DNA of 37,425 nucleotides, taken from the NCBI GenBank assembly GCA_024181965.1, contig BQXS01012457.1, positions 1-37,425 on the forward strand, written 5' to 3'. Made by a program: the position numbers and the translations under genes. Position 1 is the first letter of the stretch; each line of letters opens with the position of its first letter. The DNA comes from Aduncisulcus paluster (lineage: Eukaryota). Positions 1 to 37,425 of the stretch are shown in pieces. Below the pieces are notes generated by a model. That model did not search any database. It saw only the letters and a program-made list of their open reading frames with translations, and was not told the DNA's origin.

Positions 1-476
1 CTCAGATGTTCCACTCCTCCAACATGATGGCTGCCTGTGACCACCGTCATGGTCGTTACCTCACTGCCGCCGCTATCTTCCGTGGTCGTATGTCTACCAA
101 GGAGGTTGAGGAGCAGATGTTCAATATCCAGAACAAGAACTCTTCCTACTTCGTTGAGTGGATCCCCAACAACATCAAGACCTCCATCTGTGACATCCCT
201 CCCCGTGGTTTGAAGATGGCCTCCACTTTCATCGGTAACTCCACCGCCATCCAGGAGCTCTTCCGTCGTGTCCATGACCAATTCCGTGCTATGTTCACTC
301 GTAGAGCTTTCCTTCACTGGTACACTGGTGAGGGTATGGATGACATGGAATTCTCTGAAGCTGAGATGAACATGACCGATCTTGTCTCTGAGTACCAACA
401 ATACCAGGACGCCTCCGTCGACGATGACGAGGGTGAAGAGATGGAAGGTGAGGACGAAATGGAGGGTGACTTCTAA
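1..476 (+). CDS. TUBB: Beta-tubulin, C-terminal part (5' truncated by window edge)
   Basis: Translation has beta-tubulin hallmarks [61 protein letters not shown] and an acidic tail. TAA is at 474-476. Strong C/T-ending codon bias is typical of a highly expressed gene. Confidence 0.97.
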
Positions 477-966: not shown

Positions 967-3900
967 TTATTCTTCTTTCTTCTTGTCGAATCCTCTCGAA
1001 TCCCGGTATTCAATAGAACTCTGAATTGTTGAAGAGATACTCAAAGAATCCAATTCACTCGTTGGTGGGACAATATAACTTGATTCTGAGGTAATGACAC
1101 GGGATCTACTCGGATTGGATTGCTTTGAATTCGCTTTGGACAGAAGTTGAAGAGAGTAATCGTCAACGGATTCATCATGCCTTACAATGAGCAAAGATGA
1201 TTCGTCTGTATCTTTATCTGGGGTATAACTTATTTGAAGATCACGAGTTTCTTCACGAATAGTTTGGCGAGTCGAAGTTGAATCATTACTATCTTTCACC
1301 ACTCCATCACNNNNNNNNNNNNNNNNNNNNTTCTGAGGTAATGACACGGGATCTACTCGGATTGGATTGCTTTGAATTCGCTTTGGACAGAAGTTGAAGA
1401 GAGTAATCGTCAACGGATTCATCATGCCGTACAATGAGCAAAGATGATTCGTCTGTATCTTTATCTGGGGTATAACTTATTTGAAGATCACGAGTTTCTT
1501 CACGAATAGTTTGGCGAGTCGAAGTTGAATCATTACTATCTTTCACCACTCCATCACTCTCTTCTTCATACTCAAATTCAACAACATTCTTAGATTTTCC
1601 AAGAGTTTTGATCTTTTCCTTAATTATTTCATTCATGGTTGGGAATTCAAAACCTTCTCCAATCTTTGGCAATAAATCTTTGACATTTTGAACCCTTTTA
1701 CGCGCTTCATGAACACTCATGCGTTCATCTTCATTGAGTTTGGTAAGACCAATGAATACTTCATTCAAAACCTTATGAACAAGTTCGTATTTCCTATCTT
1801 CAATGGTTAACAAAGACTTAAACAAAGGAGATTGAGAGAGAGGTGGACACATATCATTTTCCATCAAACGCTTCAGTAATTTCATAATATCAAGAACATT
1901 GGCTTTTCCTAAACGAACTTTTCTATAAACTTCTCTAAAAATGGGTAATGAAACAAAAGGTTGTTCACATAAGAATAACGCCAGGATCGACATTCCAAGA
2001 GAATATCCATCGCTCTTTTGGGTCTGAGTTCCATATGAAAGAGTTTCATACGAGTTGTACACAAGAGTTCCACATCTGGAATTCTTTTGTTTTGTCTTTT
2101 CTTTCCTTTCGCCCTGGATGGCTGATTTAGAAGACGTTGAAGAAGAGATAGAATCTAAGATTTGAACCATTCCAAGATCACCAAGGACAACAGTGCAATC
2201 TCCATCTTTGGGATCAACACGAACAAGGAAGTTGTTTGGTTTGACATCTCGATGAATAAGACGTTTCTTTGCTCTAAACACATCATCAAGACATTCGATC
2301 ATCCCAACACAGAGAGAACATACTTTCACAGGATTCAGTGTCATGGGATCAACATGAGTTGTGTCATGTTCACTCTTGGAAGAATCAGAAGAATATTCTG
2401 AATCCGAATATTCTTCATCCTTTTCACTCTCATCTCTAACATCCTTTGCTTTTAAATACTCGCCATCATCACACCAACTCCTTGCAAAGTCCTTAACACT
2501 ACCTCCAGCACAAAATTCCATGATAAATCCATATACACCTTTCATATCTGCATCAAGCAGGTCAAGAATATAAAGAGGACGTGGGATACGATTGAAACAT
2601 TTTGGATTCGTAAACAATTTGAGTTGCATCTTGAACTCCTTTCGGCATCCTTTGACAACCCTTTCATCAGCTTCACGGAGCATTTTCTTCAGAACACAAG
2701 GAATCGGAATACCTTCAACTTCAACAAGAAGAACTTCACCAAATCCACCATGACCAATGATGCACTGAGGAGTGATGGTTTCCGAGGAAGTGAGAGTGAA
2801 AGAATCATGTTTGATAAGCTTTGTGGAATCTGAAGAAAGGGGAGGAATGTCTTCACCTTTAATGAAAATAAGGGAATCTATTTGAAAATTTCTACTATTC
2901 TTCTCTTCCCATGTTCCTTTGCCTTTAATATCACATAACCTAACGTTTTGTAAATCAATAGGAAGGAAGTACCATTCATATTCATTTTTATGTTTTATAA
3001 ATTCATACTTCTTGGATGTCTTCTTTCCATTTGAAAAAGTAAAAGTGAAGAGAAGAGAGGGAGAACTATCATCCTTTTCCACACAAATATATGCACCTTT
3101 TATAGGACTAGGTTGTGAAAAAGGGATGGAAAGGTGGGATAAAAATACACTATATTTTCCATTCAACATTCCTTGGGCTCTTGAACTCTTATCATACCAC
3201 TTAGATTCCATAATACAACAATCATCATATCCTTGTACCATGTCAAGGGGAGGTCGTATAACCGTTGGATCATATGGAAAAATTGGATATGAATTTTTAT
3301 CCCCCTTTTTAATAAAATTTGGTTTCACTATGGTTGCTTCATGCCATTGTTTCTCACAATTACCTTCCTTAATCTTATATGCATAGGATTCTTCAGAAGT
3401 TCTTTCTCTAACAAACGCAAGCGACATGATCCTAAATTTTTCTCCTTCTTTTCCTTCAATTTCACATAGAATAACGTCAGAAATATCAATTGATATGAAA
3501 AACCAACTATTTTCAAGAATTTTAGAAAAGTCAATCTTCTTGGCCTTTTTCTCCCTCTTTGAAGAAGTAAATGCAAACGTCAGCTGGGATGCAGATAATT
3601 CAGCATCTAAACATATATAAATACCTTTGATTGGGGAAGAGGATAGGAAAGGAATGGAGATATCTGTGAAATACTCTCTCTCAGAATAATCAACATATTC
3701 TTTCATCATCTGTTGAGCATTAGAACTCTGATCATAGCCTTTGTTTCCTTCCTCCTTGCTTTTGTCTGTTGCTTTAATTGCAGAAAAGTCTGGATTCTGA
3801 ACAATTGGATCGTCTCGAGGAATAGGAATGCAGGAGCAATCTCCAAAATTAATAAACTCAATAGTTCCAGTTGAAACATACTTTTTGATAAACAGCAGAG

Positions 3901-6900
3901 AAATTATGGTGAAGGATTGACTATACTTTATGTTCCATGTTCCTTTCCCTTTAATATCACATAACACAATATTTTCCAAATCAATAGGGAGAAAATGCCA
4001 TTCATAATCGTACTTGGGTCTTATAAATTCATATTTCTTGTATATTTTCTTACCATCAGAATCGGTGAAAGTGAAGAGAAGAGAGGGCGAACTTGAATCT
4101 TTATCCACACAGATATAAGCACCTTTCATAGGACTAGGTGATGGGAAAGGAATGGAAAGATGGGATAATGTCACTTCTCCTTCACCCTTTAACATTTCTT
4201 GTGCTCCTTCACTCTGGTCATAATACTCAGATTCAATAGAATACAAATCATTCTTTCCCTTGACCATCTCAAAAGAAGGACTATTGACGGCTGGATCATC
4301 ACGTGGAATGGGGATGGCAGATTCATCGCCAGAATTCACAAACTCGGGTGTAATGACGGGCTGTAGAGCATTTTTGAAAAAGAGATATGAAATGGTATTA
4401 GAAACAAATCGAAAGATCATATTGTCAAATAAGATTAGCATGAATCGTATCAAATAATAAACAAAGAAATAGCAAATATAAAACCAATAAAATATAATGA
4501 ACATACAGCTTTAGACCATTGGTCCTCAATGGATTCCCGAATACAACGTTCTTCAGGCGTTTCTTCTCGAAAGAAAACGAGAGCATCAATCCAAAAACTC
4601 CGATTATTATCATCATCATCCCATCCTTTCCCTTCAATCTCACACGATATAACATCGTCCAAATCAATAGGAAGGAAGTACCATTCATATTCAAACACAG
4701 AATCAATAGATTCTGATCCATCTTCTGAAGATTCTGATTCAGAGTCTTCCTTTGAGGATTCTGAAGTATCTTTCTCACGTTCCGATAACGTACTTTCAGT
4801 TTTTGAAAATTTATATACTTTCATAATCTTTTCCTGTTTACGGAGGGTGAATGTGAATATAAAAGACCCTGAAGAATAATAATCTTCATTCATACAGACT
4901 AAAACGCCCCTTATAAGACCAGAAGAGATAAAAGGAATCGAGAGATGAGTAATACCAATAAGCATATAATCAAAAACCTCTCGCTTCATCATATTTTGAA
5001 CTTCTAAACTCAGATCATAGTCATCAGAATCTTTATAATACATATCATTCTTTGCCCTTATCTTTGATAAAAAGGGTTTGACAATGCAAATATCATCTCG
5101 AGGAATATGAATTTCACTCGTACTACTTTTGACAACAAACTTCGGTGAGAAAATCTTAGCTTCAGAAAATAGATTTTCATGTGAACTTATCTTTGATTTA
5201 CGAACAAGTGATTCGTACGGCGTTTCTTCTCGAATAAAAAAAAGAGAATTAATTTCAAAACATCGACTTTTCTTCTCTTCCCATGTACCTTTTCCCTGAA
5301 TCTCACATAATCTAACATTTTCCAAATCAATAGGGAGAAAATGCCATTCATCATAATTTACAGGTCTTGTGAATTCATATTTCTTGTATGTTTTCTTGCC
5401 ATCACAATCAGTGAAAGTGAAGAGAAGAGAAGGTGAACTGTGATACTCATTTACACAGATATAAGCACCTTTCATTTTTGGATTTGGTGATGGAAAAGGG
5501 ATAGAAATATGGGATAACTTTACCGATATTCCCTTTCTTAACATGTTTTGTGCTTGTAAATTCTGATCATCAAGATCTAAATCATTGGATTTTTCTTCCA
5601 TATATGTTTCATTTTGTCCTTTAACCATCTCAAAGGAAGGGCAAATAATAATCGGATCATCAAGAGGATATGGAATATAGTCTCCACCTTCATCATGAAT
5701 ATAGGTCGGTTTCACAATTTGGGATTCAGACCAAAGTTTCTCAAGAGTTTCCTCTTTAAGTTTACGAATTGAGGTTTCTTCTTCCGTTTCTTCTCTAATG
5801 AAAACAAGTGAATTGATCCTAAAACGCCGACTATTCTTCATTTCCCATGTTCCTTTTCCTTCAATCTCACACAATACAACGTTAACCAAATCAATAGAAA
5901 GGAAGTACCATTCATATTCATGTTTAGGTCTTGTGAATTCATACTTCTTGAACGTCTTCTTATCGTCAGAATCGGTGAAAGTGAAGAGAAGAGAGGGCGA
6001 ACTTGAATCTTTATCCACACAGATATATGCACCTTTCATTGGACTAGGTGATGGGAAAGGGATGGAAAGATGGGATAAGCTAACGAAATCCTTCCCCTTT
6101 AATATATTTTGTACTTGCGAATTGATATTCTTATAAATTGTTTCATCTTTTCCTTTGACCATCTCAAAATTAGGATTTATGATAGTTGGATCATTGCGTG
6201 GAATTGGAATAGAATGGCCACCTTCATTTACAAATTTTGGCTTCAATACTGAGATGTCTAGGCATTGAGTTTCTCTACAACCGACAGATTCTGCATGTAT
6301 TTCTTCACGGATGAAAATTAATGAGTTAAGTTTAGAACATCGACTATTCTTTTCTTCCCACATCCCTTTCCCTTTAATATCACATAACACAATATTTTTC
6401 AAATCAATAGGGAGAAAATGCCATTCATAATCGTATTTGGGTCTTATGAATTTATATTTCTTGTATATTTTCTTACCATCAGAATCGGTGAAAGTGAAGA
6501 GAAGAGAGGGCGAACTTGAATCTTTATCCACACAGATATATGCACCTTTCATTGGACTAGGTGATGGGAAAGGGATGGAAAGATGGGATAATATCACTTC
6601 TCCTTCACCTTTTAACATTTCTTGTGCTCCTTCACTCTGGTCATAATACTCAGATTCAATAGAATACAAATCATTCTTTCCCTTGACCATCTCAAAAGAA
6701 GGACTATTGACGGCTGGATCATCACGTGGAATGGGGATGGCAGATGCATCGCCAGAATTCACAAACTCTGATTTAATGGCGGGCTATAGAGCATTTTTGA
6801 AAAAGAGATATGAAATGGTATTAGAAACAAATCGAAAGANNNNNNNNNNNNNNNNNNNNACCTTTTAACATTTCTTGTGCTCCTTCACTCTGGTCATATT

Positions 6901-9900
6901 ACTCAGATTCAATAGAATACAAATCATTCTTTCCCTTGACCATCTCAAAAGAAGGACTATTGACGGCTGGATCATCACGTGGAATGGGGATGGCAGATGC
7001 ATCGCCAGAATTCACAAACTCTGATTTAATGGCGGGCTATAGAGCATTTTTGAAAAAGAGATATGAAATGGTATTAGAAACAAATCGAAAGATCATATTG
7101 TCAAATAAGATTAGCATGAATCGTATCAAATAATAAACAAAGAAATAGCAAATATAAAACCAATAAAATATAATGAACATACAGCTTTAGACCATTGGTC
7201 CTCAATGGATTCCCGAATACAACGTTCTTCAAGAGTTTCTTCTCGAAAGAAAACGAGGTACTTGATTCGAAAATGACGGCTATTCTTCTCTATTAATGTT
7301 CCTTTCCCTTCAATCTCACACGATATAACATCGTCCAAATCAATAGGAAGGAAGTACCATCCATATTCAAACACAGAATCAATAGATTCTGATCCATCTT
7401 CTGAAGATTCTGATTCAGAGTCTTCCTTTGAGGATTCTGAAGTATCTTTCTCACGTTCCAATAACGTACTTTCAGATTCAGAGTTTTTCTTCTGTTTCTT
7501 CTCATCCGAAAATAAATACCTTTTGAAAGTTTTTGTATTATTTGAAAGAATAAAAGTGTAGAGTAGAGATGGTGAACTGTGATACCCATCCACACAGATA
7601 TAAGCACCTTTCATCCGACAAGGAGATGGGAAAGGAATGGAAAGATGGGATAATGTCACTTCTCCTTCACCTTTTAACATTTTTTGAGCATTTGAACCTT
7701 GATCATAATCTTCAGATTCCTTACTCTTCGAATCATCTTTGCTCTTAACCATTGACAATGAAGAGTTGATTACGCATGGATTATCACAAGAAATAGGAAT
7801 AGAAAATCGATATCCAGAATTAATATATTGTGGTATGATTGGTGTTTTTCCCCATATTTTCTTCAGACTTTCTATTCTTTGTTTACGGTTCGTAGATTCT
7901 TCAGATGTTTCTTCTCGAAAGAAAACTAGGGATTCGACATCAAAATATCGACTATTCTTTTCTTCCCACATCCCTTTCCCTTTAATATCACATAACACAA
8001 TATTTTCCAAATCAATAGGGAGAAAATGCCATTCATAATCGTATTTGGGTCTTATGAATTTATATTTCTTGTATATTTTCTTACCATCAGAATCGGTGAA
8101 AGTGAAGAGAAGAGAGGGCGAACTTGAATCTTTATCCACACAGATATATGCACCTTTCATTGGACTAGGTGATGGGAAAGGGATGGAAAGATGGGATAAT
8201 ATCACTTCTCCTTCACCTTTTAACATTTCTTGTGCTCCTTCACTCTGGTCATAATACTCAGATTCAATAGAATACAAATCATTCTTTCCCTTGACCATCT
8301 CAAAAGAAGGACTATTGACGGCTGGATCATCACGTGGAATGGGGATGGCAGATGCATCGCCAGAATTCACAAACTCTGATTTAATGGCGGGCTATAGAGC
8401 ATTTTTGAAAAAGAGATATGAAATGGTATTAGAAACAAATCGAAAGATCATATTGTCAAATAAGATTAGCATGAATCGTATCAAATAATAAACAAAGAAA
8501 TAGCAAATATAAAACCAATAAAATATAATGAACATACAGCTTTAGACCATTGGTCCTCAATGGATTCCCGAATACAACGTTCTTCAAGAGTTTCTTCTCG
8601 AAAGAAAACGAGAGCATCAATCCAAAAACTCCGATTATTATCATCATCATCCCATCCTTTCCCTTCAATCTCACATAACACAATATTTTCCAAATCAATA
8701 GGGAGAAAATGCCATTCATAATCGTATTTGGGTCTTATGAATTTATATTTCTTGTATATTTTCTTACCATCAGAATCGGTGAAAGTGAAGAGAAGAGAGG
8801 GCGAACTTGAATCTTTATCCACACAGATATATGCACCTTTCATTGGACTAGGTGATGGGAAAGGGATGGAAAGATGGGATAATATCACTTCTCCTTCACC
8901 TTTTAACATTTCTTGTGCTCCTTCACTCTGGTCATAATACTCAGATTCAATAGAATACAAATCATTCTTTCCCTTGACCATCTCAAAAGAAGGACTATTG
9001 ACGGCTGGATCATCACGTGGAATGGGGATGGCAGATGCATCGCCAGAATTCACAAACTCTGATTTAATGGCGGGCTATAGAGCATTTTTGAAAAAGAGAT
9101 ATGAAATGGTATTAGAAACAAATCGAAAGATCATATTGTCAAATAAGATTAGCATGAATCGTATCAAATAATAAACAAAGAAATAGCAAATATAAAACCA
9201 ATAAAATATAATGAACATACAGCTTTAGACCATTGGTCCTCAATGGATTCCCGAATACAACGTTCTTCAAGAGTTTCTTCTCGAAAGAAAACGAGAGCAT
9301 CAATCCAAAAACTCCGATTATTATCATCATCATCCCATCCTTTCCCTTCAATCTCACACGATATAACATCGTCCAAATCAATAGGAAGGAAGTACCATTC
9401 ATATTCAAACACAGAATCAATAGATTCTGATCCATCTTCTGAAGATTCTGATTCAGAGTCTTCCTTTGAGGATTCTGAAGTATCTTTCTCACGTTCCGAT
9501 AACGTACTTTCAGTTTTTGAAAATTTATACTTCTTGTGTGTCTTTAACCCTGTTGGACTTGTGAAAGTGAAGATAAGATGAAAAGGTGCTAAATTTTTCA
9601 CAATACAAATATAAGAACCTTTTAATGGGGTGGATGCGGATAAAGGTATCGATATATAGGTACAGGATCCAGAAATGAACTCTGTTTCGCCTTTCATCAT
9701 TTCTTGAACCTCTGAACTCAGTTCATAGCCGTCTTGACCAATATCCACTGTTTCATTGATTGAATTGATGTTGTCAAAGTCTGGATTCGTTATGTTGGGG
9801 GCATCACAAGGAATTGGAAGACAAGACAAACCTCCTTCACGGATAAATTCTGGATAAACGAGTTGAATCTAGATAAAATTGCCAAAATAAATCGATTATA

Positions 9901-9988
9901 AGCAATATTATATCAAATAAAAGTATATTTGGCTTCAAAAATCTCTTTTTTTACGTACTTCACTTTCTGAACTTGGATTTAGATCCAT
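967..9988 (-). CDS. Giant multi-exon protein kinase with 11 tandem N-terminal modules. Exons (minus): 9988-9959, 9868-9221, 9074-8538, 8391-7183, 6783-4507, 4360-967. About 2,615 aa if the gap overlaps at 6840 and 1311 are collapsed.
   Basis: ATG at 9988 (MDLNPSSESE). All exon lengths are multiples of 3 and the introns are GT..AG, joining ...QWSKA|P(V/A)I(T/K)(P/S)EFVN in frame. Module consensus is PEF..GD...IPIPRDDP...LSHLSIPF.SPSPMKGAYICV...SSPSLLFTFT...KKYEF....EWHFLPIDL....CEI.GKG...F.I.SL.F.RE, with 1+1+2+4+3 copies per exon. The kinase has GHGGFG, VLKK, HRDVKPNN, DLG, CGTLVYNSYE and SDGYSLG. TAA is at 967-969. No signal peptide or TM is evident in the spliced product. Confidence 0.85.
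1084..1557. repeat. Duplicated flanks of the 20-N gap 1311-1330 (1084-1310 vs 1331-1557); probable unmerged contig overlap
   Basis: Near-identical 227-nt copies at offset 247. Collapsing them restores a continuous kinase C-terminus ending at TAA 967. Confidence 0.85.
1670..2790 (-). other. Ser/Thr-type protein kinase domain of the modular kinase (approximate bounds)
   Basis: Gly loop GHGGFG, Lys in VLKK, alphaC Glu (RKEF), catalytic HRDVKPNN, DFG replaced by DLG, APE replaced by SYE, and an acidic/Ser insert after the hinge (EKDEEYSDSEYSSDSS). Confidence 0.93.
4361..4506 (-). other. Spliceosomal intron, 146 nt, phase 0 (copy A; GTATGT...CTACAG)
   Basis: Donor GTATGT follows the codons for WSKA, the body is T-rich with CTAAT branch-like motifs, and the acceptor is CAG. 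Removal fuses ORF 4450..6762 to ORF 1307..4504 in frame. Confidence 0.9.
6784..6839 (-). other. 3' part of the same intron (copy B), cut by an N gap; probably the same physical intron as 7037..7182
   Basis: Identical to the 3' end of the other copies (acceptor CTATAG). Sequence after the gap (6860-7092) repeats 6607-6839 at offset 253. Confidence 0.75.
7037..7182 (-). other. Spliceosomal intron, 146 nt, phase 0 (copy C; GTATGT...CTATAG)
   Basis: Same sequence as copy A except the acceptor is TAG. The join WSKA|PAIKSEFVN is in frame. Confidence 0.9.
8392..8537 (-). other. Spliceosomal intron, 146 nt, phase 0 (copy D)
   Basis: Matches copy C, GTATGT..TAG, in-frame join. Confidence 0.9.
9075..9220 (-). 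other. Spliceosomal intron, 146 nt, phase 0 (copy E)
   Basis: Matches copies C and D, GTATGT..TAG, in-frame join. Confidence 0.9.
9869..9958 (-). other. First intron of the modular kinase, 90 nt, phase 0 (GTACGT...TCTAG)
   Basis: It links a 10-codon ATG exon to IQLVYPEFIREGGLSCLPIP, which matches the module start. It contains an in-frame TGA and is AT-rich. Confidence 0.75.
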
Positions 9989-10865
9989 AATGTTCTTGAT
10001 ATTCTATAACGAGAACACGAATAAAAATAAAACAATACAACATTTTAACAAAGAATAATACCACAATTATCGAACATTTAGTGAATTTCAAGGAGGAAAT
10101 GACGACAAGAACAGCCAGCGAGAGAACCAGTGAATAAAATGGGGTGATTATGGATTGACAAGAATTTAATATCCAATAAACAAAAAATTATGACATACAA
10201 TATTTTCAATATTTCTTTTACAACGGGAAGAAATGAAGTTTTAGAATTCAAAACTCTGTATAATAACAATGCAAGATGACATTGCAGAATATATCGATTA
10301 AAAAATACAAATGTTTTATTTCTAACATACATTGGAAGCTAGTCTTGCTATTCCACTCCTGACTCAAAATCGTTTCATAACTCCCGAGTTTTGTTCACAT
10401 ATTGGATTATAAAGTTACATTATGTGAATATAGATCCAACAAAGAAAATATTAATTCGATATTCATTCTCCTGGGAGCGTTATTTGATAGCTTAATAATA
10501 TTATGACAAAACTCACTCATCTCCAAAATGATTAAACAATAATTCAATAGTAATGATATTTATTACACTGTAAAACGGCATGAAACTAAGGAGCAAACAA
10601 TAGCATTGCCACTGTTGATCATTATTCAGACCACTGGTTTCTTCTGACAGAAGTTAATATTATGGTATTGTTTGCGCATCCATACTGGTCAAAAATTTGA
10701 TGATAATTTGAGAAAAACTTCTAAAAATAGAATCTATGGACCAAATCTCTTCGATTTGTGCAGAAATAGTAAAAATATGAATAAAAAAACTTAACGGATT
10801 GAATTAGAATTCAGAAATTATTGATATCTATTGATTTCATTCTTGAATGAATGTCATCTTTCCCT

Positions 10866-13800
10866 TCACATGGCTACAAATTTGATCACCATAAAAAACA
10901 ATACAATTCCGATTGTCAACACTAATCCCCAACCAAGAATCATATCTTGTTTAGGATAAATTTGGGAGAAATGACAATCCTCTTCACTGTGCATTGTAAA
11001 TGTTTGGAGAGGAATCGGAATATCATACGCATCCCAAAGATGAGAAATATCGTTTGTGCTCATCTCTACATCACACCCATCATAATTCTGTTGGAAGGAT
11101 GAGCTTGAAGGTGTGTATGTTTCACAATCGTCAGAGCTTGGATAATTTATCACAATAACACCTAGAAGGTTGGTATCTGTAATAGAAACGATTGTAACAG
11201 TACTTTTATCTGCAGATTCATACCCAACACATGTTTCAGGCAGTGTACTTTGTAAATAAAGCATTGAACACGTGACACCATCGATTGTATAATCAACAGA
11301 AGATGTGAGACTGGATGTATCTGTAGTAAAATACTCATCGATCACTCCAGAGGAAATATTGAATGCACTTTTGCTCTTCAAAACACCCAGAGATTCCAAG
11401 AGGGTGAATATGGCAGGATTTGATTCCCCAATGAACACTTCTTCATTCATTGTAACAGCCATCTCTAAAGTGTCAATTTCGCTATCTCTCGAGGAAAATA
11501 ATAAGTTCCCATTAGTATTTAGCAAGAAGCATGTAACTGTGCTATCACTGCCACATAATCCTTCATATAGGAAAGATTTAATCGTTGGGAAATGAATGTT
11601 GAGTCCAGATACCATAGTTGGAGTCCCATTGACAACTTTAGCCTTGCTGATACTAAATTGAGATATGTTTGTATCTGGAGACGTGACAGGAAGAGAAACA
11701 AAGAGAGTGTTGTCGCCAGCCATGGCATTTGTTAGAGAATTACCATACCATGTGAATTCTTTTGGTTGTGGGACCTCTGAGAAAGAAGTTCCTGGGAATA
11801 GCGAGAGAACTCCCTCAGGAGTGGCTCTGAAAGATGATAAGACATATTTTTGAGTGGTCTCTTCGTCAACAGCTGTACTAACAACATGGTCATCAAATAT
11901 ACTTATCATCTTTGCTGCATCAATACACGCCTCTGTCACATAGGTTGAATCAGATTCCCCACTCAGCTCAGCAGTAATAGATTCGAAAAGAGAGGAAGAA
12001 TCAAGTGTGGACGAGGAGAAGTCTGATGTGAACAAGGTGGAATCTGTGAAACATTCTTCAGATAGATGGACAAAGGGAGTGGTCAAAGATGCCGTAACAC
12101 CAGTCAACAAGAAATGGTCTGTGATCGCTGCATAACCGATATCGGCTTGATAATCAGAGTTTGCAAGAGATATTTGACCCCAAACACTTGCATTATAGCA
12201 TAAAGAATCGTCAGAAATGTCAGAACATGAGCTTTCAGGTGGAGGAATGTGTATCTTATCAATGTCAAGTTGTTGAAGTGAAGTGACAACGATAAACTCC
12301 GTGTCAAGCTTCTGCCATCCATATGTGGTCTCCACTGGGGTTAATTCAGTGAAATCGGCTACCATATGTCTCAGAACAGGGACGGATAGTTCACCAGTAT
12401 TAACACTTCTGTTAACAACAGTGTATAGAACACTTGATGAGAAATCGCTTCCCCCAGTGGTTAAAGGATTATCGTCAACATAGTCAGAGTCAAACTGCTC
12501 AAGCAAGTCGAGATCAACACCCTCGTTAGTTAACCCAATGTTAACAAGTGCCGGGTGCAGCAATAATGTTTTCTGTCTGTCAAATAACATCGGGAAGGAA
12601 TAGTTACTGTCAATGCCAACCCCATCGGCATCTATCACGTGGTCTAACATCCACTGAAGTGAAATATCAATAAGAATTACACTATCAAAGCGATCATTGA
12701 TGAACACTGGAGAAGCAAGGGATACGATATTACTTTCTAAAATTGGATCTTTCTCAATACTTACAATTTCCCAAAGCATCTTATTGGCAACTTCTTCATT
12801 CGAACATACAGCTTCATCACCTTGGGCACAATCAAAGGGTCCAAACTGTCTAAATAATTCAAATGCTCTCATTGCTAATTTTTGTTCAAATATTCTTTCA
12901 ACGGGCTTAAGCAGTTCGCTATAATCTGTATAAACAAATCGTCCTTGAGTAGTCACCGAATCACTAGTATCATCGTCGTCAGATATATCACTGGCCATGT
13001 AAAGGTCATAGTAACCACTAAAATCTATTGAATCGATACTTCCATTGAGCCGACAACTAACTGAATGGAGAATATTCTCAGTTGCTCTCGAAGCCATGAC
13101 ATCACTTGATGATAAACCGTCACTGTTCAGCATCAGAGTATTATTAAGAATGTCGTCCGCCAGTGTCGATCTGAAGAATAACGTGGACACATGTGCATTG
13201 CTTACTTTCTCTCTGTCTGAAGTGAGATGGAGCTCCAAGTGGGCTGGAACAGCGGCACCGAGGGATACAGTGATGACATGAAGCGGAGAAGAAGAGGGGA
13301 GAGGACGAAGCGGAGTGAGAGAAGCCTGGGAGGAAGAGAAACCAACTGGACTAGCCACACGTTCAGAAAGAACCGTTTCCAGTGACACGGAAGGATCCAG
13401 AGCACCTCGGAGCAGGACATAAGCCTTTGAAAGAGCCACGACAAGCGGGGCATCAGCGGACAGAGCTGAAGAAGAGAAAGGCGAGAGGTGATCCCGAGCC
13501 ATAAGCTCTTCCCCAGACAAATTATCGAAATAATCTGTCACTTCGTCCATTAGAAGATTGACTGCAGCGGATGTCATACTGACAAGACCACCTTCAAGCT
13601 CGTCATCACATCCACGTTTATCACCTCCATTGGAAGTAGCTGTGAACTCAAGCCGAGCATCAAAAGCTTCGTCTGTTGATAAGATAGCCACGTAATCTGT
13701 AGAAGTCAAATGCGATAGAATAATGTTGACTGTATCACTCATTTGAGCAATTGCAGCAGCTGCCACATCCTCATCGGCAAGGGCTATATCAATTACTGGA

Positions 13801-14663
13801 TCTGTCTCAATATCTATAATTAGAACAATTCCTCGTCTTATGCCCATATTTCTTCCCACATCATATGTAATACTGGACCTTGGGTCAAGAGTGGAGCGAG
13901 AGAGAAGAGAAGAAGAAGAGATAGGATGGAAGAAATTAACTCCAGGAAATAGAGTCACAGCTCCATCTGTAAACACCCTTCGAATCCAAAGAAGCGGAGA
14001 TACGGCCGTGTCAACATTGCCATCCTGGTCGACGACATATTCCATGTTACAATCATAAGAACCACGATCACAGAAGTAAACGTTCCGAAAGGCATCGATC
14101 ATTGTTTGAGACACCTGTTTATCCTCATTACACGTTTCACTGGTGAAGTACGGGCACCATAGCGTTGGTGTTTCGAAGGTTAATGGTAAAGTCTCATCCT
14201 CATCATCTTCATTGACATATTGATACTTCTTGAGTAAGTCAGCCTCATCAGTCGAAGTGCTAATGAGATCATCATCTAAAGATTGGGATGCAAGAGGCAA
14301 AGTAATTGAAGCTTCCTCTTGAAGGGCTTGAGTAAACTCTTTTGAGAACTCAGCAATATTTTGGAATATACTATTAAACATTGAATCAATCGTTTCCGAT
14401 ACATCATCAGTAAATTGATTTCCATAACTTGAACTTGAACTAACAGATTGTAACAGCTCAGAAAAAATCTCTGTGTTCGAAGAAGGATAAAATAGATCAT
14501 AAAATTCACTCCACATGTTAACAAGCTCAGCATAATTCTGCAATGTGAGATAAGTTGACGAATCTTCATCAAGACATTGAGTTGGAGCGACACAGAAGAA
14601 AAAGCATACAATAGGGATAAAAATCAGGAAAAACTGAGATATACAAGTTTCTTTCATGGCCAT
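10866..14663 (-). CDS. Alpha2delta/CACHD1-like VWA + Cache domain type I membrane protein, 1265 aa
   Basis: N-terminal hydrophobic signal (FFLIFIPIVCFFFCVAPTQC). DGAVTLFPG...LDPRSSITY resembles the alpha2delta G....YP...YDPR.RPWY motif and is followed by a VWA strand IVLIIDIETD...ILSHLTSTDYVAIL. Cache-like segments include SLASPVF...VILIDISL, YSFPMLFDRQKTLLLHP, EGVLSLFPG...FTWY and CFLLNTNGNLLFS. C-terminal TM is ILGWGLVLTIGIVLFFMVI. Confidence 0.8.
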   Translation of the reverse strand: MAMKETCISQFFLIFIPIVCFFFCVAPTQCLDEDSSTYLTLQNYAELVNMWSEFYDLFYPSSNTEIFSELLQSVSSSSSYGNQFTDDVSETIDSMFNSIFQNIAEFSKEFTQALQEEASITLPLASQSLDDDLISTSTDEADLLKKYQYVNEDDEDETLPLTFETPTLWCPYFTSETCNEDKQVSQTMIDAFRNVYFCDRGSYDCNMEYVVDQDGNVDTAVSPLLWIRRVFTDGAVTLFPGVNFFHPISSSSLLSRSTLDPRSSITYDVGRNMGIRRGIVLIIDIETDPVIDIALADEDVAAAAIAQMSDTVNIILSHLTSTDYVAILSTDEAFDARLEFTATSNGGDKRGCDDELEGGLVSMTSAAVNLLMDEVTDYFDNLSGEELMARDHLSPFSSSALSADAPLVVALSKAYVLLRGALDPSVSLETVLSERVASPVGFSSSQASLTPLRPLPSSSPLHVITVSLGAAVPAHLELHLTSDREKVSNAHVSTLFFRSTLADDILNNTLMLNSDGLSSSDVMASRATENILHSVSCRLNGSIDSIDFSGYYDLYMASDISDDDDTSDSVTTQGRFVYTDYSELLKPVERIFEQKLAMRAFELFRQFGPFDCAQGDEAVCSNEEVANKMLWEIVSIEKDPILESNIVSLASPVFINDRFDSVILIDISLQWMLDHVIDADGVGIDSNYSFPMLFDRQKTLLLHPALVNIGLTNEGVDLDLLEQFDSDYVDDNPLTTGGSDFSSSVLYTVVNRSVNTGELSVPVLRHMVADFTELTPVETTYGWQKLDTEFIVVTSLQQLDIDKIHIPPPESSCSDISDDSLCYNASVWGQISLANSDYQADIGYAAITDHFLLTGVTASLTTPFVHLSEECFTDSTLFTSDFSSSTLDSSSLFESITAELSGESDSTYVTEACIDAAKMISIFDDHVVSTAVDEETTQKYVLSSFRATPEGVLSLFPGTSFSEVPQPKEFTWYGNSLTNAMAGDNTLFVSLPVTSPDTNISQFSISKAKVVNGTPTMVSGLNIHFPTIKSFLYEGLCGSDSTVTCFLLNTNGNLLFSSRDSEIDTLEMAVTMNEEVFIGESNPAIFTLLESLGVLKSKSAFNISSGVIDEYFTTDTSSLTSSVDYTIDGVTCSMLYLQSTLPETCVGYESADKSTVTIVSITDTNLLGVIVINYPSSDDCETYTPSSSSFQQNYDGCDVEMSTNDISHLWDAYDIPIPLQTFTMHSEEDCHFSQIYPKQDMILGWGLVLTIGIVLFFMVIKFVAM

Positions 14664-15438
14664 TTAGAAAAATAATTGAATTGAACGAGAAATAAATGGA
14701 AAAATGACAAGAAAACACCTAGCAGGGACCGCCCCCCCCGGGTGTATCACGGACAGGGGAGCGTTCTAATCACAGAATAAAACTGTTGAAGGAGCCAAAT
14801 TTGCCAAATGGAATTGATTCCATTATTTTTCACCAGAACAATAGGAATTTACCTTGATAGGGAAAGATTATCCAAATTTGTGCAAACTCACCAGAAATTG
14901 ATAATCAGTGGAATCAATCGTTTCCGATACATCATCAGTAAATTGATTTCCATAACTTGAACTTGAACTAACAGATTGTAACAGCTCAGAAAAAATCTCT
15001 GTGTTCGAAGAAGGATAAAATAGATCATAAAATTCACTCCACATGTTAACAAGCTCAGCATAATTCTGCAATGTGAGATAAGTTGACGAATCTTCATCAA
15101 GACATTGAGTTGGAGCGACACAGAAGAAAAAGCATACAATAGGGATAAAAATCAGGAAAAACTGAGATATACAAGTTTCTTTCATGGCCATTTAGAAAAA
15201 TAATTGAATTGAACGAGAAATAAATGGAAAAATGACAAGAAAACACCTAGCAGGGACCGCCCCCCCCGGGTGTATCACGGACAGGGGAGCGTTCTAATCA
15301 CAGAATAAAACTGTTGAAGGAGCCAAATTTGCCAAATGGAATTGATTCCATTATTTTTCACCAGAACAATAGGAATTTACCTTGATAGGGAAAGATTATC
15401 CAAATTTGTGCAAACTCACCAGAAATTGATAATCAGTG
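14383..15438. repeat. Head-to-tail 528-bp tandem duplication (14383-14910 / 14911-15438) covering the 5' end and upstream region of the VWA-Cache gene
   Basis: I saw no differences between the two copies. The second copy generates the truncated ORF 14868..15191. Confidence 0.92.
14868..15191 (-). pseudogene. Truncated duplicate of the first ~93 codons of the VWA-Cache gene (a real fragment or an assembly artefact)
   Basis: Identical N-terminus up to ETIDS, then it reads into upstream non-coding DNA and stops. Confidence 0.55.
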
Positions 15439-20313: not shown

Positions 20314-20557
20314 TTGTTGATGTTCATTGGACAACGTGATTTTGGAATTCTGATAAACTTTACCTTCAAGGTAATAGGTAACTTATTTGTTATGTGTACA
20401 ATTAAGTTGTATTTATCAACCATTTATAAAGTGTTTTTTGAATAAACTAAAGTATTATTATGAAATTTGGGAAGCAATAATAATTTTATTCGTTGTTGTA
20501 TTGCAAAAAATTCAAAAATCCGAGTTTGGCTGAAATATTAATGAAATAGATTTTATT

Positions 20558-23365
20558 ATGGACAATTATTTTATAAATAACCCGATAATCATCATTCCTG
20601 GCTCTTATTATACTCGATATGGCTGTGCAAAATCCATTTCCAGTGTCAAATCTTGTCGAAGTGTTATTGGAGAACTTATTCCCGCGAAAAATAAGAAATC
20701 CTCCCAATCTGCATCATTATGGCAAAATGTTAAACATTTAATTCCTCCAAAATCCTATCAATCAATTGAATCGGTTGAATCTCTATTCGATAAGTTTGAT
20801 GGGATTTTATTTAATTCTCGATCAAAATCGTCAATCATATCCACAAAACATCATCTTTCCAAATCTTCTTCCAAGCGTCGATCCATTACTCCACTTACTT
20901 CCCAAAAAATGTCGGAAAAGCGAAGAAATTCTTTATCCAAATCATCAAAAATATCAAAATCAACAAAATCTAAACACTTGGAAAGCGATGATCATGATTC
21001 TTATGATCATGATTCATATGATGTCAAATGCATAAGTTTCCTTGATTCAGAATCACATCATTTTCCATCAATTCTTGAAATTGACGCTTGTGTCAAAGCT
21101 AATAATCCAATATCATCAGAATTCCTCGTGGAATCTGAAGATTATCTTGGTATTTCCCATGATGGATTTGAGTTACCTTCTCACGTTCCCAATTCTCATC
21201 TAACAGTTCTCCCTTCTTTTCTATATGGAGAAAAAGCCCTTGAACATGCATCGGAATACACAATAACTGACATATTTACGTCAAAAGGCCACCTTAATCT
21301 TCATCCGTGTTCTTTCATCGATCAATCTTCATTCAGTTCATCTTGTCACAGATATCCATCTTCCACGAGCTCTGATTTTGGTGATAAGTTTTCTAAGACA
21401 CATGTTGATTTTGATATTACTCGTTGCATGCACAACACTCAGCTTTTTCTTGGAAGTTTAATATCTTCAGTCATGAATTCATTTCCTCATGAACAGCCAT
21501 TGAAGTCTTCTTCTGTTGAACAAATATCATTGTCTTCCTTGACATTTCCAAATATTTCGATCATATACGTTATTCCCGATTTAATTTCTAAACAAGAATT
21601 ATTCCTTCTTTGTGACATTTTCTTCAAGAATATGAAATTGTATAGCGTCACGTTTATACAAAATAGTGTTGCATGTTGTTTTGGTTCTCTGTCTCTCTCT
21701 TCTCACCAATCTTCTTCAACTGTATCCAAACACACGGCTCCTTTCTCGATTGTTCTTGATATTGGTCATTCTTATTGTTCTTTTTGCGCTGTAAAGGATG
21801 GCAATATTGTTCCTCATACTGCATTCTTACTGAATACTGGGTGCTCTGGTTTCAGAAATGTATTTGTTGATTCTATTTTTGGATCATCTTTCTCAAGTTA
21901 TCAGTCATTTCGTGGTTGTTTTGAAACCAAAAGGAAGGAAGAAAATGGTGATGGAAAAGAGAGAGTGAAAGAAAAAAAGATAGAAGAAGAAGAAAAGAAA
22001 GAAATTTTTGATTTATTTCCACCTCTAATTTATTCTCCTTGTGTTTCAATGTCTTCAATTCACATTGAAAAAAAAATGCATTCAAAACATATCAATATTG
22101 CCAATCTTCCACATATTCGATCACAATTATCTTCTTCGCCAAATCCTCATGGCTTTGATTGCATTATCAATACTATTCTTTCTCATGGGTTATCAATGGA
22201 TTCAACCAATCCTCAATTTACCATCAAGCCTTCCTCTAATTCCTCTTCCTCTTCATCTTCATCTTCCTCTTCCTCTTCTTCGGTTCTTAGTGTTCGATTG
22301 GGAAGTACGTCTCAAGTTATACCATCATGTATGCTTTTACAACCATCATTATGTTCGACGTCTTGTCTTTCTTCTATTCAATCTGAACATTTATATGGTC
22401 ATTTGTCTCATTTTTCAGCTATAAAGAATTCTGAAGATCAAGCAGAGTTGTTAATTCAAAGTTTTGGAAGAATATCGCCATATTTAGACTCTTATTATGG
22501 ATTTATATCACCAATATCCTTGATCCAAAATATATATCAGCTTAAACAACCATATCCAAAGGTTATTGCTGATTCAAAAAGAGATACAGATATAGATCTC
22601 GTGAGTCTATTTTTAGAATTGAGAATAAGAGCATCAATCCTTCGCCATTCAAATCTTTCCTTTATTTCTGATTCTGACATCAAATCACAATGTTCCAAGA
22701 GCACCAATCCAATTAATATGCTAAGTTTTGTTCAAAAAAATCCACAATATGCTATTGTTGAACCAATTTTTGAGCTATGTAAATATATTATTATTTGTGG
22801 ATTGTCTGGTTTCGGCGTTTTGCTTGGAGATGAATTTATATCCAAACAGAAAATGATCCATAAAATTTCAAAAAAGACCAAAAAGAAAGAAAAGAAATCC
22901 AAATTAGAAGAAGAATCAACAAAATGCGAAGAAAAGTCTGATCATGGAAAAGAAGAATCACCGAAACCAAATGTCAATAATGAAACTGAATCTGTTAAGG
23001 AACATTCGACAAAAACAGCAAAAGAAAAGGAATTATCCGACGCACATTCAAATCATGCTCTATTTTTGGATCATTCTTATTTTGAGAATTTTCTTTCCTC
23101 AATTGTTGTGACTGGAGCATTAAGCGAATGTCCATATTTTATTGAGAATTTGAAATACCGTCTACAAGAAACTTTGAAAAAAGATCAGAGCCATTCATTC
23201 AATATAAATATCGAGTCTGCACTGTTGTCACACTCCAATATCGCATTTCACGGATGCTGTGTGATTTCCATGTCAAAAGATTATGCTTCTTGTAATATTA
23301 CGAGAAAAGATTGGTTTGAATTGGGTTCAATAGCCTTGAAAAAAAGCATGTTCGAGTGGATATGA
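20558..23365 (+). CDS. ARP8: Actin-related protein 8 (INO80 complex subunit), divergent, 935 aa
   Basis: IIIIPGSYYTRYG resembles Arp8 IVIHPGS..LRIG. LYGEKAL is present. YVIPDL...FIQNSVACCFG resembles LIPD...HQESVCATFG. VLDIGHSYCSFCAVKDG resembles VVDVGDQKTS.CCVEDG. SIVVTG is present, and the C-terminal ITRKDWFELGSIALKKSMFEW resembles I...EW...G.R.LRE...F.W. Confidence 0.8.
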   Translation: MDNYFINNPIIIIPGSYYTRYGCAKSISSVKSCRSVIGELIPAKNKKSSQSASLWQNVKHLIPPKSYQSIESVESLFDKFDGILFNSRSKSSIISTKHHLSKSSSKRRSITPLTSQKMSEKRRNSLSKSSKISKSTKSKHLESDDHDSYDHDSYDVKCISFLDSESHHFPSILEIDACVKANNPISSEFLVESEDYLGISHDGFELPSHVPNSHLTVLPSFLYGEKALEHASEYTITDIFTSKGHLNLHPCSFIDQSSFSSSCHRYPSSTSSDFGDKFSKTHVDFDITRCMHNTQLFLGSLISSVMNSFPHEQPLKSSSVEQISLSSLTFPNISIIYVIPDLISKQELFLLCDIFFKNMKLYSVTFIQNSVACCFGSLSLSSHQSSSTVSKHTAPFSIVLDIGHSYCSFCAVKDGNIVPHTAFLLNTGCSGFRNVFVDSIFGSSFSSYQSFRGCFETKRKEENGDGKERVKEKKIEEEEKKEIFDLFPPLIYSPCVSMSSIHIEKKMHSKHINIANLPHIRSQLSSSPNPHGFDCIINTILSHGLSMDSTNPQFTIKPSSNSSSSSSSSSSSSSSVLSVRLGSTSQVIPSCMLLQPSLCSTSCLSSIQSEHLYGHLSHFSAIKNSEDQAELLIQSFGRISPYLDSYYGFISPISLIQNIYQLKQPYPKVIADSKRDTDIDLVSLFLELRIRASILRHSNLSFISDSDIKSQCSKSTNPINMLSFVQKNPQYAIVEPIFELCKYIIICGLSGFGVLLGDEFISKQKMIHKISKKTKKKEKKSKLEEESTKCEEKSDHGKEESPKPNVNNETESVKEHSTKTAKEKELSDAHSNHALFLDHSYFENFLSSIVVTGALSECPYFIENLKYRLQETLKKDQSHSFNINIESALLSHSNIAFHGCCVISMSKDYASCNITRKDWFELGSIALKKSMFEWI

Positions 23366-23529: not shown

Positions 23530-24807
23530 CTACCATGATGGTGCATCATACCATACTGGTGATTCTGACAATTTCTTTAGAGAAGGATAGCAATTATTGA
23601 AGTATCTTGAAATTAAGAGCTTTGTATATACATCATCCCTGTTATCCATGCACCATTCCATGTTGGTAACATATTTAGGAGATATGTGAGGAACAAGAGA
23701 TGGAACAGTGGAAAACATGTAAATGAGTCTGACCCAATATTTGATTCCCCATTTGTTTTTTTCCTTCTTTATAACTGTAAACCACCCGTCAAGAAGATCT
23801 TTAACATTATCATAGACTTCAACAGCATGCGCTGGATCACAACATAAGTCGGCGAAGAACCATAAAACCTCTTCATGACCATCCTCAACAATCTTATCCC
23901 CAACAAACTCTCTCTTAACAACATCAAGAACAGGGTGGAAGAGAGGCCAAGCTTCAGAACAGAGGGATTTGTTGGGGGTTGAATTGTCACTTGAGAGGGT
24001 TATTCTTGATAGAATAATCATCCATCTTCCATAATACTTACTATTGTTGTATATTCTCAACCAATCTCTGATATATGGTTTGATGAGGGTGAAAATAGAG
24101 GATCGAGTGGAAGAAGAAAGAGAATTAGAGATGTTTCCGAGAGTACTTAGTAAATGTAGAACAACATCACCTCCCAACTTCTTCTTACTTCCTCTCTCAA
24201 GAATACGTTGGAAAGTGGGGGAGATCTTTGGAAGGAAGGAATCCCATTTATCTTGAACTAAAGCGGTATAACACATACAAATATAACAATACAATTCATC
24301 AACATCTCCTTCCAACACTTCCTCACATCTTGATAGATGATCAATGAAAGTGTCAATGAGATCATTCAGATCAGGAATAGGGAGATTGATCGAATTTCCA
24401 GAAATAACACGTCTAGCAAACCATATTAAACAGTGAGCACCAAGAACAATCTTTTCCTTGTGCTCTTCAATCTCACGCTTTGATTGGAATGCAAGGAAGA
24501 CAGAGAGAATCTCATCTCGATGTTCATGGTAGAGTTTGGAAGTTGATTCCGAGTCAGGGCATTTCTTGATTTCATTGAGTAATTCAAAAGTAATACGATC
24601 CACTTTTCTCATCAATCTAGCTGTTTTGAGTTCTTCTCTCTTCCTCTTTTCTTCTTCAAGCTTCTTATTCTCTTCTTCTTTCTTCCTCTTTTCTTTTTCA
24701 AGCTTCAATTTCTGTTTCAAGGCTTCAACCTCTTTGTCTTGACGATCAACTTCTTTCCTCAAATCTTCTTCCTCTTTTTCCTTCTTCTTCTTCTTCTTTT
24801 GAAGCAT
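23530..24807 (-). CDS. Coiled-coil plus helical (ARM/HEAT-like) region; probably the C-terminal half of the upstream kinase, separated from it by a frameshift
   Basis: Long ORF with a K/E-rich coiled coil followed by Leu/Trp-rich amphipathic helices. It overlaps the kinase ORF end by 62 nt in another frame, and its only candidate ATG lies inside the kinase CDS. Confidence 0.7.
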   Translation of the reverse strand: MLQKKKKKKEKEEEDLRKEVDRQDKEVEALKQKLKLEKEKRKKEEENKKLEEEKRKREELKTARLMRKVDRITFELLNEIKKCPDSESTSKLYHEHRDEILSVFLAFQSKREIEEHKEKIVLGAHCLIWFARRVISGNSINLPIPDLNDLIDTFIDHLSRCEEVLEGDVDELYCYICMCYTALVQDKWDSFLPKISPTFQRILERGSKKKLGGDVVLHLLSTLGNISNSLSSSTRSSIFTLIKPYIRDWLRIYNNSKYYGRWMIILSRITLSSDNSTPNKSLCSEAWPLFHPVLDVVKREFVGDKIVEDGHEEVLWFFADLCCDPAHAVEVYDNVKDLLDGWFTVIKKEKNKWGIKYWVRLIYMFSTVPSLVPHISPKYVTNMEWCMDNRDDVYTKLLISRYFNNCYPSLKKLSESPVWYDAPSW

Positions 24808-26203: not shown

Positions 26204-26309
26204 TGTAGAAAACGGAAGAAACAACCAACCAACCAATGGAAGATAGAAATAGTCTTAGAGTGTACAAATTACGAACGAATGAATGATGAAGATGCGATTG
26301 ACCAGCAGA

Positions 26310-28610: not shown

Positions 28611-28713
28611 TTTTATCCTTTATATTTTCTCCAAGCTCACAAAAGAAGAAACTTCACAATAATTGATCATCCAAAAATAAAAGTAGCCAACAAAGCGAAA
28701 AAAAATAATTTAT

Positions 28714-30060: not shown

Positions 30061-30486
30061 AAGATAAACTTGTACAGTAGTCAAATCGAAAAGAAAATCG
30101 TGAATGAACGGTATGGTGGAAGGTCAACATTGAATTCTGATAAAAATGTTCATTGATACGTAATAATTTTATTTAACCTTATTTTGAACGTTTAAGCACT
30201 AGTGGCGGGCAGAAAAAGGAAAAAATCCATACAACATGATCCACTGGCCTATGTAATGCAAATTAAATAATTCATGCTTCTATATTTAATAATGAATAAC
30301 ATATTTGAAAATTCAAATATGCCATCCAAGGAATCAATTGAAAATCGAAAATGCGTTAATTGACAAATAGAGCCTTTTGTCAACCAGTTATCACCTTAAT
30401 TGGATATATCTGTCACTTTTTAACAAATTGACCATTTCTTTTTGCGAAATTTACTATAAAAGAATTGTTGACTGTCATAATTTTTG

Positions 30487-35771: not shown

Positions 35772-36081
35772 ATTTTAAATGATTCCGAATACAGGAAAAG
35801 GCGGAAAAGAGCATGAAAAACGTTAATCTGGATTAAAATATTGTCTTGCTAATAATAAACCAGAAAAAATTGTATTTTACCAATTTGACGAATAAATAGA
35901 ATAATATTTTAAGGAATAGTAAATTGAGTAGGCAGATGTGAAACCCCATTTTCCAGCCAACCAGATTTCAATAATTTAGACATTAGAGATCATATCAAAG
36001 AGTCAAAATGATAACAACTGATTAATTTATAACATAAAAATTTACTTAAACATATCCAACCTATGTAAAAAGTGAGATCAG

Positions 36082-37392: not shown

Positions 37393-37425
37393 ATGTTGCC
37401 AAAAGGCAATGTTGAACGCAAAATT

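Follow-up and report, generated by a model that had tools for sequence, protein, structure and literature searches.

A spliced kinase gene of Aduncisulcus paluster with ten or eleven tandem modules, and its family as a candidate intracellular recognition repertoire

Results

A spliced gene for eleven modules and a protein kinase

The stretch analysed here (the window: all 37,425 nucleotides of contig BQXS01012457.1 of the Aduncisulcus paluster assembly GCA_024181965.1) carries on its minus strand, at 967-9988, a gene whose spliced reading comprises 11 copies of one module of 151-199 amino acids (aa), followed by a protein kinase (Table 1). The first-pass annotation of this DNA had joined separate open reading frames (ORFs) into one frame through four introns of 146 nt, and had counted 11 modules of about 150-200 aa ahead of the kinase; both proposals are borne out, the first by coordinates, phase and the junctions of a public protein, and the second by module lengths and a kinase profile match, with sequencing depth hinting at 10 modules (see below). 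The four introns, hereafter the cloned introns I1-I4, all read GTATGT..AG, have a GC content of 23% and lie in phase 0 between WSKA and P; I1-I3 are identical, and I4 deviates at base 144 alone (CAG instead of TAG at the acceptor). If unspliced, each would lead to a stop 18 codons in. With the introns removed, the spacing of modules equals that at the gene's own uninterrupted junctions (for example WSESQIVKPTY and WGKTPIIPQY), and an annotated QWSKAP junction is likewise found in 12 of 260 other proteins. The gene had been thought hidden, but the public hypothetical protein P0126 (2714 aa) has identical junctions and contains five of the six exon translations in full; of the sixth, which has 1010 residues, it includes the first 1004. 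Judged from its sequence, the gene is real, spliced and already annotated as a hypothetical protein. Its module-bearing exons hold 1, 1, 2, 4 and 3 modules, and no spare module was found in its introns.

Sequencing contigs were compared over 1331-5900, a span that has the module-2 junction and introns I1-I3 outside it. Those of run X2, which we guess to be RNA, have a depth of 4-77 on unique exon stretches and no cover in 4391-4543; none of them bridges the intron in this span, and they were not counted as evidence of splicing. As a side observation, a retained cloned intron contributes 18 uncharged, mostly hydrophobic codons (mean hydropathy 2.58). Retention may yield a kinase-less, tail-anchored form, or the hydrophobicity may merely reflect the T-rich 5' end; shuffling reached such a run in 84 of 5000 trials with the whole intron and in 656 of 5000 with the first 60 nt.

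The kinase matches the Pkinase profile of eukaryotic protein kinases (52.2 bits against a cut-off of 31.7, E = 7e-14). Its catalytic residues are present by motif position, namely the Lys in CVLKK, the alpha-C Glu in CRKEF, the HRD Asp in HRDVKPNN and the DFG Asp in DLG, and the DLG and SYE variants are common across the family described below. The product is predicted to be a soluble, intact-looking kinase of the Ser/Thr type that would carry out phosphotransfer. Comparison with PDB gave 37 weak matches, the best being HRI (7.5e-7), RIPK1 (2e-5) and CDPK1, and no family assignment. No membrane segment or signal was detected in the protein, whose top 19-residue hydropathy (1.64) falls within the kinase; across the family, 14 of 261 proteins reach 1.9. 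The layout of receptor kinases, with a signal peptide and a transmembrane helix between sensor and kinase, was not found. The hydropathy maximum, the Pkinase match and the predicted fold thus agree with the earlier proposal of a cytosolic kinase, lacking a transmembrane helix, behind an array of binding-type modules.

Table 1. Features of the module-kinase gene, duplicated segments and ordinary neighbouring genes in the window.
Feature	Position	Strand	Description
Exon 1	9959-9988	-	10 codons including start ATG; P0126 residues 1-10
First intron	9869-9958	-	90 nt, GTACGT..TAG, phase 0; unrelated to the cloned introns
Exon 2	9221-9868	-	Module 1 (9281-9859), acidic insert in tail
Cloned intron I1	9075-9220	-	146 nt, phase 0
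Exon 3	8538-9074	-	Module 2, chimera of module-3 head and module-1 tail; perhaps missing from most chromosomes
Cloned intron I2	8392-8537	-	146 nt
Exon 4	7183-8391	-	Modules 3 (7915-8385) and 4 (7243-7839)
Cloned intron I3	7037-7182	-	146 nt
Exon 5	4507-6783	-	Modules 5 (6307-6777), 6 (5794-6246), 7 (5230-5715) and 8 (4567-5151; acidic insert as in module 1)
Cloned intron I4	4361-4506	-	146 nt, CAG acceptor
Last exon, modules	2858-4354	-	Modules 9 (3884-4354), 10 (3407-3865) and 11 (2858-3328)
Protein kinase domain	1706-2758	-	Gly loop, beta-3 Lys, alpha-C Glu, HRDVKPNN, DLG for DFG, SYE for APE
C-terminal tail	967-1705	-	Ser/acidic, with stop codon (967-969); duplicate around N20 gap, 1084-1310 recurring as 1331-1557
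Copied block, full copy	3941-4815	-	309-nt module tail, intron, 420-nt module head
Copied block, further copies	8673-9529; 7948-8675; 6340-6783 + 7037-7475	-	
42-nt patch	7258-7299	-	25 differences from the module-1 copy, flanks identical; spans the last hypervariable loop and strand of module 4
Perfect tandem duplication	7988-9358		Offset 683 nt; 7988-8675 = 8671-9358, junction in 5-nt microhomology
Probable overlap artefact	6607-7092		6607-6839 recurs as 6860-7092 around N20 gap; lone mismatch (6899) gives a stop in the right-hand copy
Tubulin C-terminus	3-476		
Actin-related protein	20534-23365		
NUDIX	27534-28619		
NAD(P)H-hydrate dehydratase	28714-30123		
XPG/Exo1-type nuclease	33687-35774		
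Bromodomain protein	36082-37425		

A large family with hypervariable sites

The gene is a member of a family that numbers more than 240 proteins and is, as far as database matches indicate, restricted to this species, whose published draft comprises 15,316 predicted proteins (PMC9933649). There were 228 longer matches, and the 120 listed are all labelled A. paluster, as are 23 of the 24 matches of similar length; the remaining one bears the EukProt label 'Carplike' and is apparently transcript-derived. A profile search of 1.84 billion representatives gave 164 matches (150 listed), and the 10 weak ones that were looked up all belong to A. paluster. Among 247 fetched proteins (P0126 included), 243 have 1-11 modules, 651 in total, and 79 carry the kinase motif. 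Proteins with two modules and no kinase are more frequent than any other form, and many of the gene models are incomplete. Literature searches, judged from titles and abstract openings and with most subscription papers outside reach, returned no published description of the family. Three of its proteins (P0211, P0241 and P0239) have divergent modules before long coiled regions, and P0211 and P0241 end in a different-looking kinase.

From 502 near-complete modules, 205 distinct modules of B-type and 114 of A-type were analysed, the more divergent rest being left out. Over the 157 columns of the B-type alignment, 11 (sites 46, 62, 64, 88, 89, 118, 143, 144, 149, 151 and 153) reach at least 3 bits and 93 stay below 1 bit, and the 11 sites form 204 distinct signatures among the 205 modules. 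The variable columns of the two types coincide (16 shared, p = 8e-9; split-half rho 0.95). Residues at the 11 sites are nearly random, yet rich in W, Y, D and E, with W enriched 5-8 fold and Y 2.5-5 fold. Using a protein-level proxy for the neutral expectation, 84% of the 11 sites differ between modules whose frameworks are 3-6% apart (133 pairs) against 19% expected, and 86% against 37% where frameworks are 9-12% apart (2541 pairs). Since 2954 of the 3202 DNA contigs on 1331-5900 are at least 95% alike, the framework DNA of many copies is unsaturated. Conversion tracts alone would moreover be insufficient, because the variable residues 149, 151 and 153 interleave with the near-invariant 150 and 152. 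Diversifying selection at the 11 sites appears likely.

By strand order, the variable sites fall ahead of strand 1, in the loops that follow strands 2, 4 and 6, and on every other residue where strand 7 begins. Given the topology of CBM32, F-type lectin and DOC domains, such positions would lie at the end where those domains bind their ligands.

A predicted jelly roll without sequence relatives

The module had seemed assignable to no named family, and indeed Pfam gave no match for five window proteins (E up to 1) or 47 family members (E up to 0.1), DOC/APC10 and CBM32 / F5-8 type C included, nor did sequence and profile searches of PDB (0 matches). A fold can nevertheless be assigned, in that the models predict a galactose-binding-like jelly roll (galactose-binding-domain-like superfamily). 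AlphaFold gave a beta-sandwich for one module (pLDDT 78.5), and the model of a two-module relative (pLDDT 92.5, pTM 0.87) suggests a rigid pair. The best structural matches of the predicted model include APC10/Doc1 (8a3t; Z 11.5, rmsd 3.1, 145 aligned), a CBM32 (7jnb; Z 11.2, rmsd 3.0, 134 aligned) and the DOC domain of HECTD3 (9r6v; Z 10.8, rmsd 2.8, 126 aligned), within an overall range, for predicted models, of Z 10-11.5, rmsd about 3 and 120-145 aligned.

Membership in the F-type lectins was rejected, as the fucose motif HX24RXDX4[RK] occurs in 0 of 502 modules and the calcium motif h2DGx in 2 of 502 (motifs from PMC12221842). No ubiquitin ligase domain was present among the Pfam matches of 30 long family members, and Pfam scans of the gene and of these 30 gave no NACHT or NB-ARC. 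The ESM Atlas yielded leads only, namely unnamed bacterial clusters at 0.90-0.91 (135-140 shared features) and galactose-binding-like clusters at 0.87. No relatives were confirmed among 292 metagenome and 77 viral-contig pattern matches, and a viral fold library gave TM-scores of at most 0.29, to F5/8- and CBM-containing proteins, leaving a viral source unsupported.

A tail-intron-head block shared between modules

Comparison outward from each cloned intron confirmed that the copied unit consists of a module tail, the intron and the next module head. Whole-exon duplication was rejected, as this unit is offset from exon borders. Upstream of the intron, the copies at I1 and I4 match over 309 nt save for 2 differences, a stretch that contains an acidic insert absent from all other fetched proteins, and about 293 nt are shared upstream of I3, save the 42-nt patch and 2 single changes. 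Downstream, the copies are alike for 134-148 codons. Beyond the block ends the flanks are unrelated, with different heads in modules 1, 4 and 8 and different tails in modules 3, 5 and 9, so that a block of 870-900 nt is found in three different contexts with unique sequence between them. The I4 copy has private differences on either side of its intron.

Because near-identical blocks sit between unrelated flanks, gene conversion, or old duplications overwritten by conversion, would fit these data better than simple tandem growth. We think it probable that the block spread over three junctions through unequal crossing-over and non-allelic gene conversion among modules in register. The first-pass annotation had seen very recent duplication or homogenisation in an expanding and contracting array; its recent copying is upheld, whereas head-to-tail duplication is observed for only one of the four introns, that of the doubtful copy discussed below, and the other three lie between unrelated flanks, pointing to conversion. 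The tracts stop within conserved strands (at KYKF, and at CxIxGKG or slightly beyond it), and the last variable loop is therefore swapped against a constant head. Identical introns are an ordinary trace of recombination in repeat genes, and the point of interest is the family.

Gaps and the number of modules

Each of the five N20 gaps in the window (1311, 6840, 16138, 18696 and 26717) lies between the two copies of a 227-288-nt duplicate that differ at exactly one base; at the 1311 gap, the base at 1429 is, in both sequencing runs, that of the other copy. The 6840 gap had been suspected of hiding further units. Because all five gaps carry such one-mismatch overlap duplicates, it is most likely an overlap artefact that hides none, and hidden units were rejected on this common pattern and on the runs' base at 1429; a true stop at 6899 was rejected by analogy with the other gaps only. 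Collapsing the duplicate gives a model of 2615 aa. Public gene models that span N20 gaps, P0126 among them, include repeats that are false.

In DNA run X1, depth is given as a single value for each contig and is hence a hint only. Against 1111-1288 for single-copy contigs, the intron contig (4364-4491) has 3785, that is about 3 copies where 4 are assembled, a value that the 23% GC may have lowered. At equal GC, the variant module head (modules 2, 3 and 5) has 2524 and module 9's version 1290, a ratio of 1.96, or about 2 copies where 3 are assembled. Module 2 and one intron may accordingly be missing from most chromosomes, which would leave 3 cloned introns, 10 modules and 2436 aa. Module 2 is the candidate for the surplus because unique tails require the heads of modules 3 and 5, and we lean slightly towards its being an artefact or a minority variant. 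As an assembler hardly invents a junction in 5-nt microhomology without reads, this junction may be a library chimera or a minority recombinant.

Other genes in the window

A tblastn search of the window found no modules outside 967-9990. A second kinase of the family (24746-26254, minus strand; 51% identity over 391 aa) has no module in frame. Right downstream of it, a 438-aa ORF (23530-24846, minus strand) with a coiled-coil-like stretch, a helical-looking domain and no Pfam match may belong to the second kinase's gene or to another expanded family. A 1265-aa protein (10866-14663 and 14868-15191, minus strand) with a signal peptide, a C-terminal anchor and no Pfam match resembles a cache/VWA, alpha-2-delta-like protein; at least the first 300 nt of its gene recur at 14911-15210 without an N gap. 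An MMPL/RND-type transporter (30481-33294, plus strand; E = 1e-48) belongs to a mainly prokaryotic family, and its gene was possibly acquired laterally. The ordinary neighbours are given in Table 1.

Discussion

A candidate repertoire of cytosolic sensor kinases

The reading that we favour is that the gene encodes a cytosolic non-self sensor kinase of a germline repertoire, to which we give roughly an even chance. Each module would have its own foreign target in the cytosol, a protein or glycan from a virus, an intracellular bacterium or a parasite; the kinase would be clustered or released by multivalent binding, and members with two modules and no kinase would serve as adaptors or decoys. 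Conversion and unequal crossing-over would leave chimeric modules with new combinations of loops, the intron being carried along. That the variable sites together form a binding surface, at the end where this fold usually holds its ligand, and are under diversifying selection is likewise a proposition with about an even chance.

Several observations weigh against this reading. The role of sensor is one that we infer, and ligand, binding and activity are all putative. A single shared surface for the variable sites is suggested by strand order and known topology, and the fold matches are tied between protein binders (APC10/Doc1, the DOC domains of HECTD3 and HERC2, IFT25, muskelin) and glycan binders (CBM32, F5/8C, fucolectins). 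The neutral expectation was calibrated on the window's old module pairs (framework omega 0.24), and a codon test on such pairs gave a pN at the 11 sites (0.36-0.77) close to pS (0.41-0.56). All named relatives come from one species, which leaves no material for a comparison across species. Finally, recent conversion has reduced diversity within this gene, as the converted heads of modules 2, 3, 5 and 9 are nearly alike at most variable sites.

Among the alternatives, a lineage-specific signalling or targeting family for endogenous partners, in which the modules would bring the kinase to its substrates or to structures of the cell, a task that DOC domains have in E3 ligases, is unlikely but deserves serious weight. 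A kinase with a repeat array and kinase-less relatives is also known from the related fornicate Giardia (PMC3218828), intracellular DOC domains bind protein substrates through exposed non-conserved loop residues (PMC13018541), and a myristoylation-like N-terminal motif starts 17 of 232 family proteins. However, 204 distinct signatures among 205 modules, with near-random W/Y-rich sites, would be unexpected for endogenous partners, and no Nek is among the 37 weak PDB matches of the kinase. Most Neks, moreover, are inactive; in the present family the catalytic residues are retained in all 21 full matches to the motif, under a pattern that required them and so left dead copies uncounted.

We regard as distinctly improbable a mostly neutral or selfish expansion, in which duplication and conversion propagate a stable pair of domains and the 'hypervariable' sites are surface positions free of constraint. 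The near-equality of pN and pS at these sites agrees with it, as do the many family gene models that are partial or fused to unrelated neighbours and the homogenised introns of spidroin genes, which have no recognition role (PMC9779670). In the same codon test, however, framework pN (0.13-0.25) lies below pS (0.41-0.56), indicating purifying selection; the composition of the sites is far from the neutral codon expectation (W 5-6 fold up; L, I, V, T and P about 4 fold down), and their divergence is saturated already at very low framework distance.

We consider it very unlikely that most of the array arose in short-read assembly, by false joining of dispersed paralogs at the 870-900-nt repeat. 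This repeat does exceed the inserts of about 500 bp in the published draft (PMC9933649), the gaps carry artefact duplicates, and depth suggests one block too many. Against this, the acidic insert and a WDDDD loop are confined to this gene's own protein among the fetched proteins, the unique flanks form one linear path given two variant heads and one module-9 head, and the private differences of the I4 copy lie on both sides of its intron.

Programmed diversification, that is, conversion targeted to framework-bounded cassettes or loop patches so as to diversify receptors within a clonal population, is the least probable alternative: the conversion tracts stop in conserved strands next to variable loops, the 42-nt patch coincides with a single variable segment and the module-2 junction is by its depth possibly a minority recombinant, but homologous recombination favours conserved stretches anyway, the breakpoints are few and may lie there by chance, the Pfam matches of 11 other window ORFs include no recombinase or reverse transcriptase, and the W, E and K at the sites are not what AAY-based retroelement mutagenesis would give. 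We attach a similarly slight probability to the boldest extension of the sensor reading, an antibody-like intracellular recognition in a single-celled anaerobic eukaryote, on a DOC/discoidin scaffold with kinases attached, in which new specificities would arise in living populations by framework-bounded cassette and loop-patch conversion, the cloned intron would be a homology anchor and module 2 would be one such recombinant, present in the culture.

The means by which viruses and intracellular microbes are sensed in free-living protists are little understood, and this family, with its frozen scaffold and about eleven randomised W/Y-rich sites, is a concrete and testable candidate. If that reading is true, the repeat-receptor design has been invented independently here, on a new scaffold and with a kinase as output, and the family amounts to a natural library of binders. 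The locus is also a readable record of module recombination, including the spread of an intron by conversion.

Comparison with known systems

One intracellular likeness is with DOC and discoidin-type domains (APC10/Doc1 and the DOC domains of HERC2, HECTD3 and CUL7, 8a3t, 1jhj, 7rgw and 9r6v; IFT25; the muskelin discoidin domain), which have in common with the module an intracellular location and the jelly roll predicted here; identity to these is 6-13%, without a match to sequence, Pfam or PDB profiles. To our knowledge, DOC domains occur singly, in ubiquitin ligases, and not as hypervariable tandem arrays on a kinase. In HECTD3, substrate specificity comes from exposed variable loops (PMC13018541).

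CBM32 / F5-8 type C domains, F-type lectins and oyster sperm bindin have the same predicted fold (7jnb, 3nng, 1k12), and by analogy the array may resemble oyster bindin in its working (PMC12221842). In contrast to bindin and F-type lectins, the present proteins are predicted to be cytosolic, are fused to a kinase and come from many genes instead of a single-copy one. Near-identical introns within one repeat gene have been described for the spidroin MaSp2 and ascribed to unequal crossing-over and conversion (PMC9779670), although MaSp2 is a structural protein with low-complexity repeats and without hypervariable binding sites.

In Giardia, 198 of 278 kinases are Neks, 133 of these with 1-26 ankyrin repeats, and kinase-less relatives (Protein 21.1) exist (PMC3218828). 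Both cases show a lineage-specific kinase expansion in a fornicate, a variable repeat array and kinase-less forms; the Giardia proteins, however, carry TALM-ankyrin repeats after an N-terminal kinase, whereas here there is no ankyrin and the kinase is C-terminal. The ROCO-LRR and NB-ARC-TPR genes of Ectocarpus combine repeat exons, positive selection on the binding face and an attached signalling domain (PMC3341825). There, each exon holds one repeat and spare copies are intronic, whereas here an intron precedes only 5 of the 11 modules and lies within the copied unit.

In fungal NLRs (HET-E, NWD; WD40/ANK/TPR), highly identical intracellular repeats are reshuffled within and between genes, with few diversifying positions on the binding face (PMC4986451). 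The A. paluster family differs in having globular domains of 160 aa instead of solenoid repeats, and a C-terminal kinase. Its internally conserved repeats, their reshuffling and the hypervariable sites are as in fungal NLRs, and the likeness to NLR-type repertoires drawn by the first-pass annotation from a single gene is strengthened by hypervariable sites that extend across the family.

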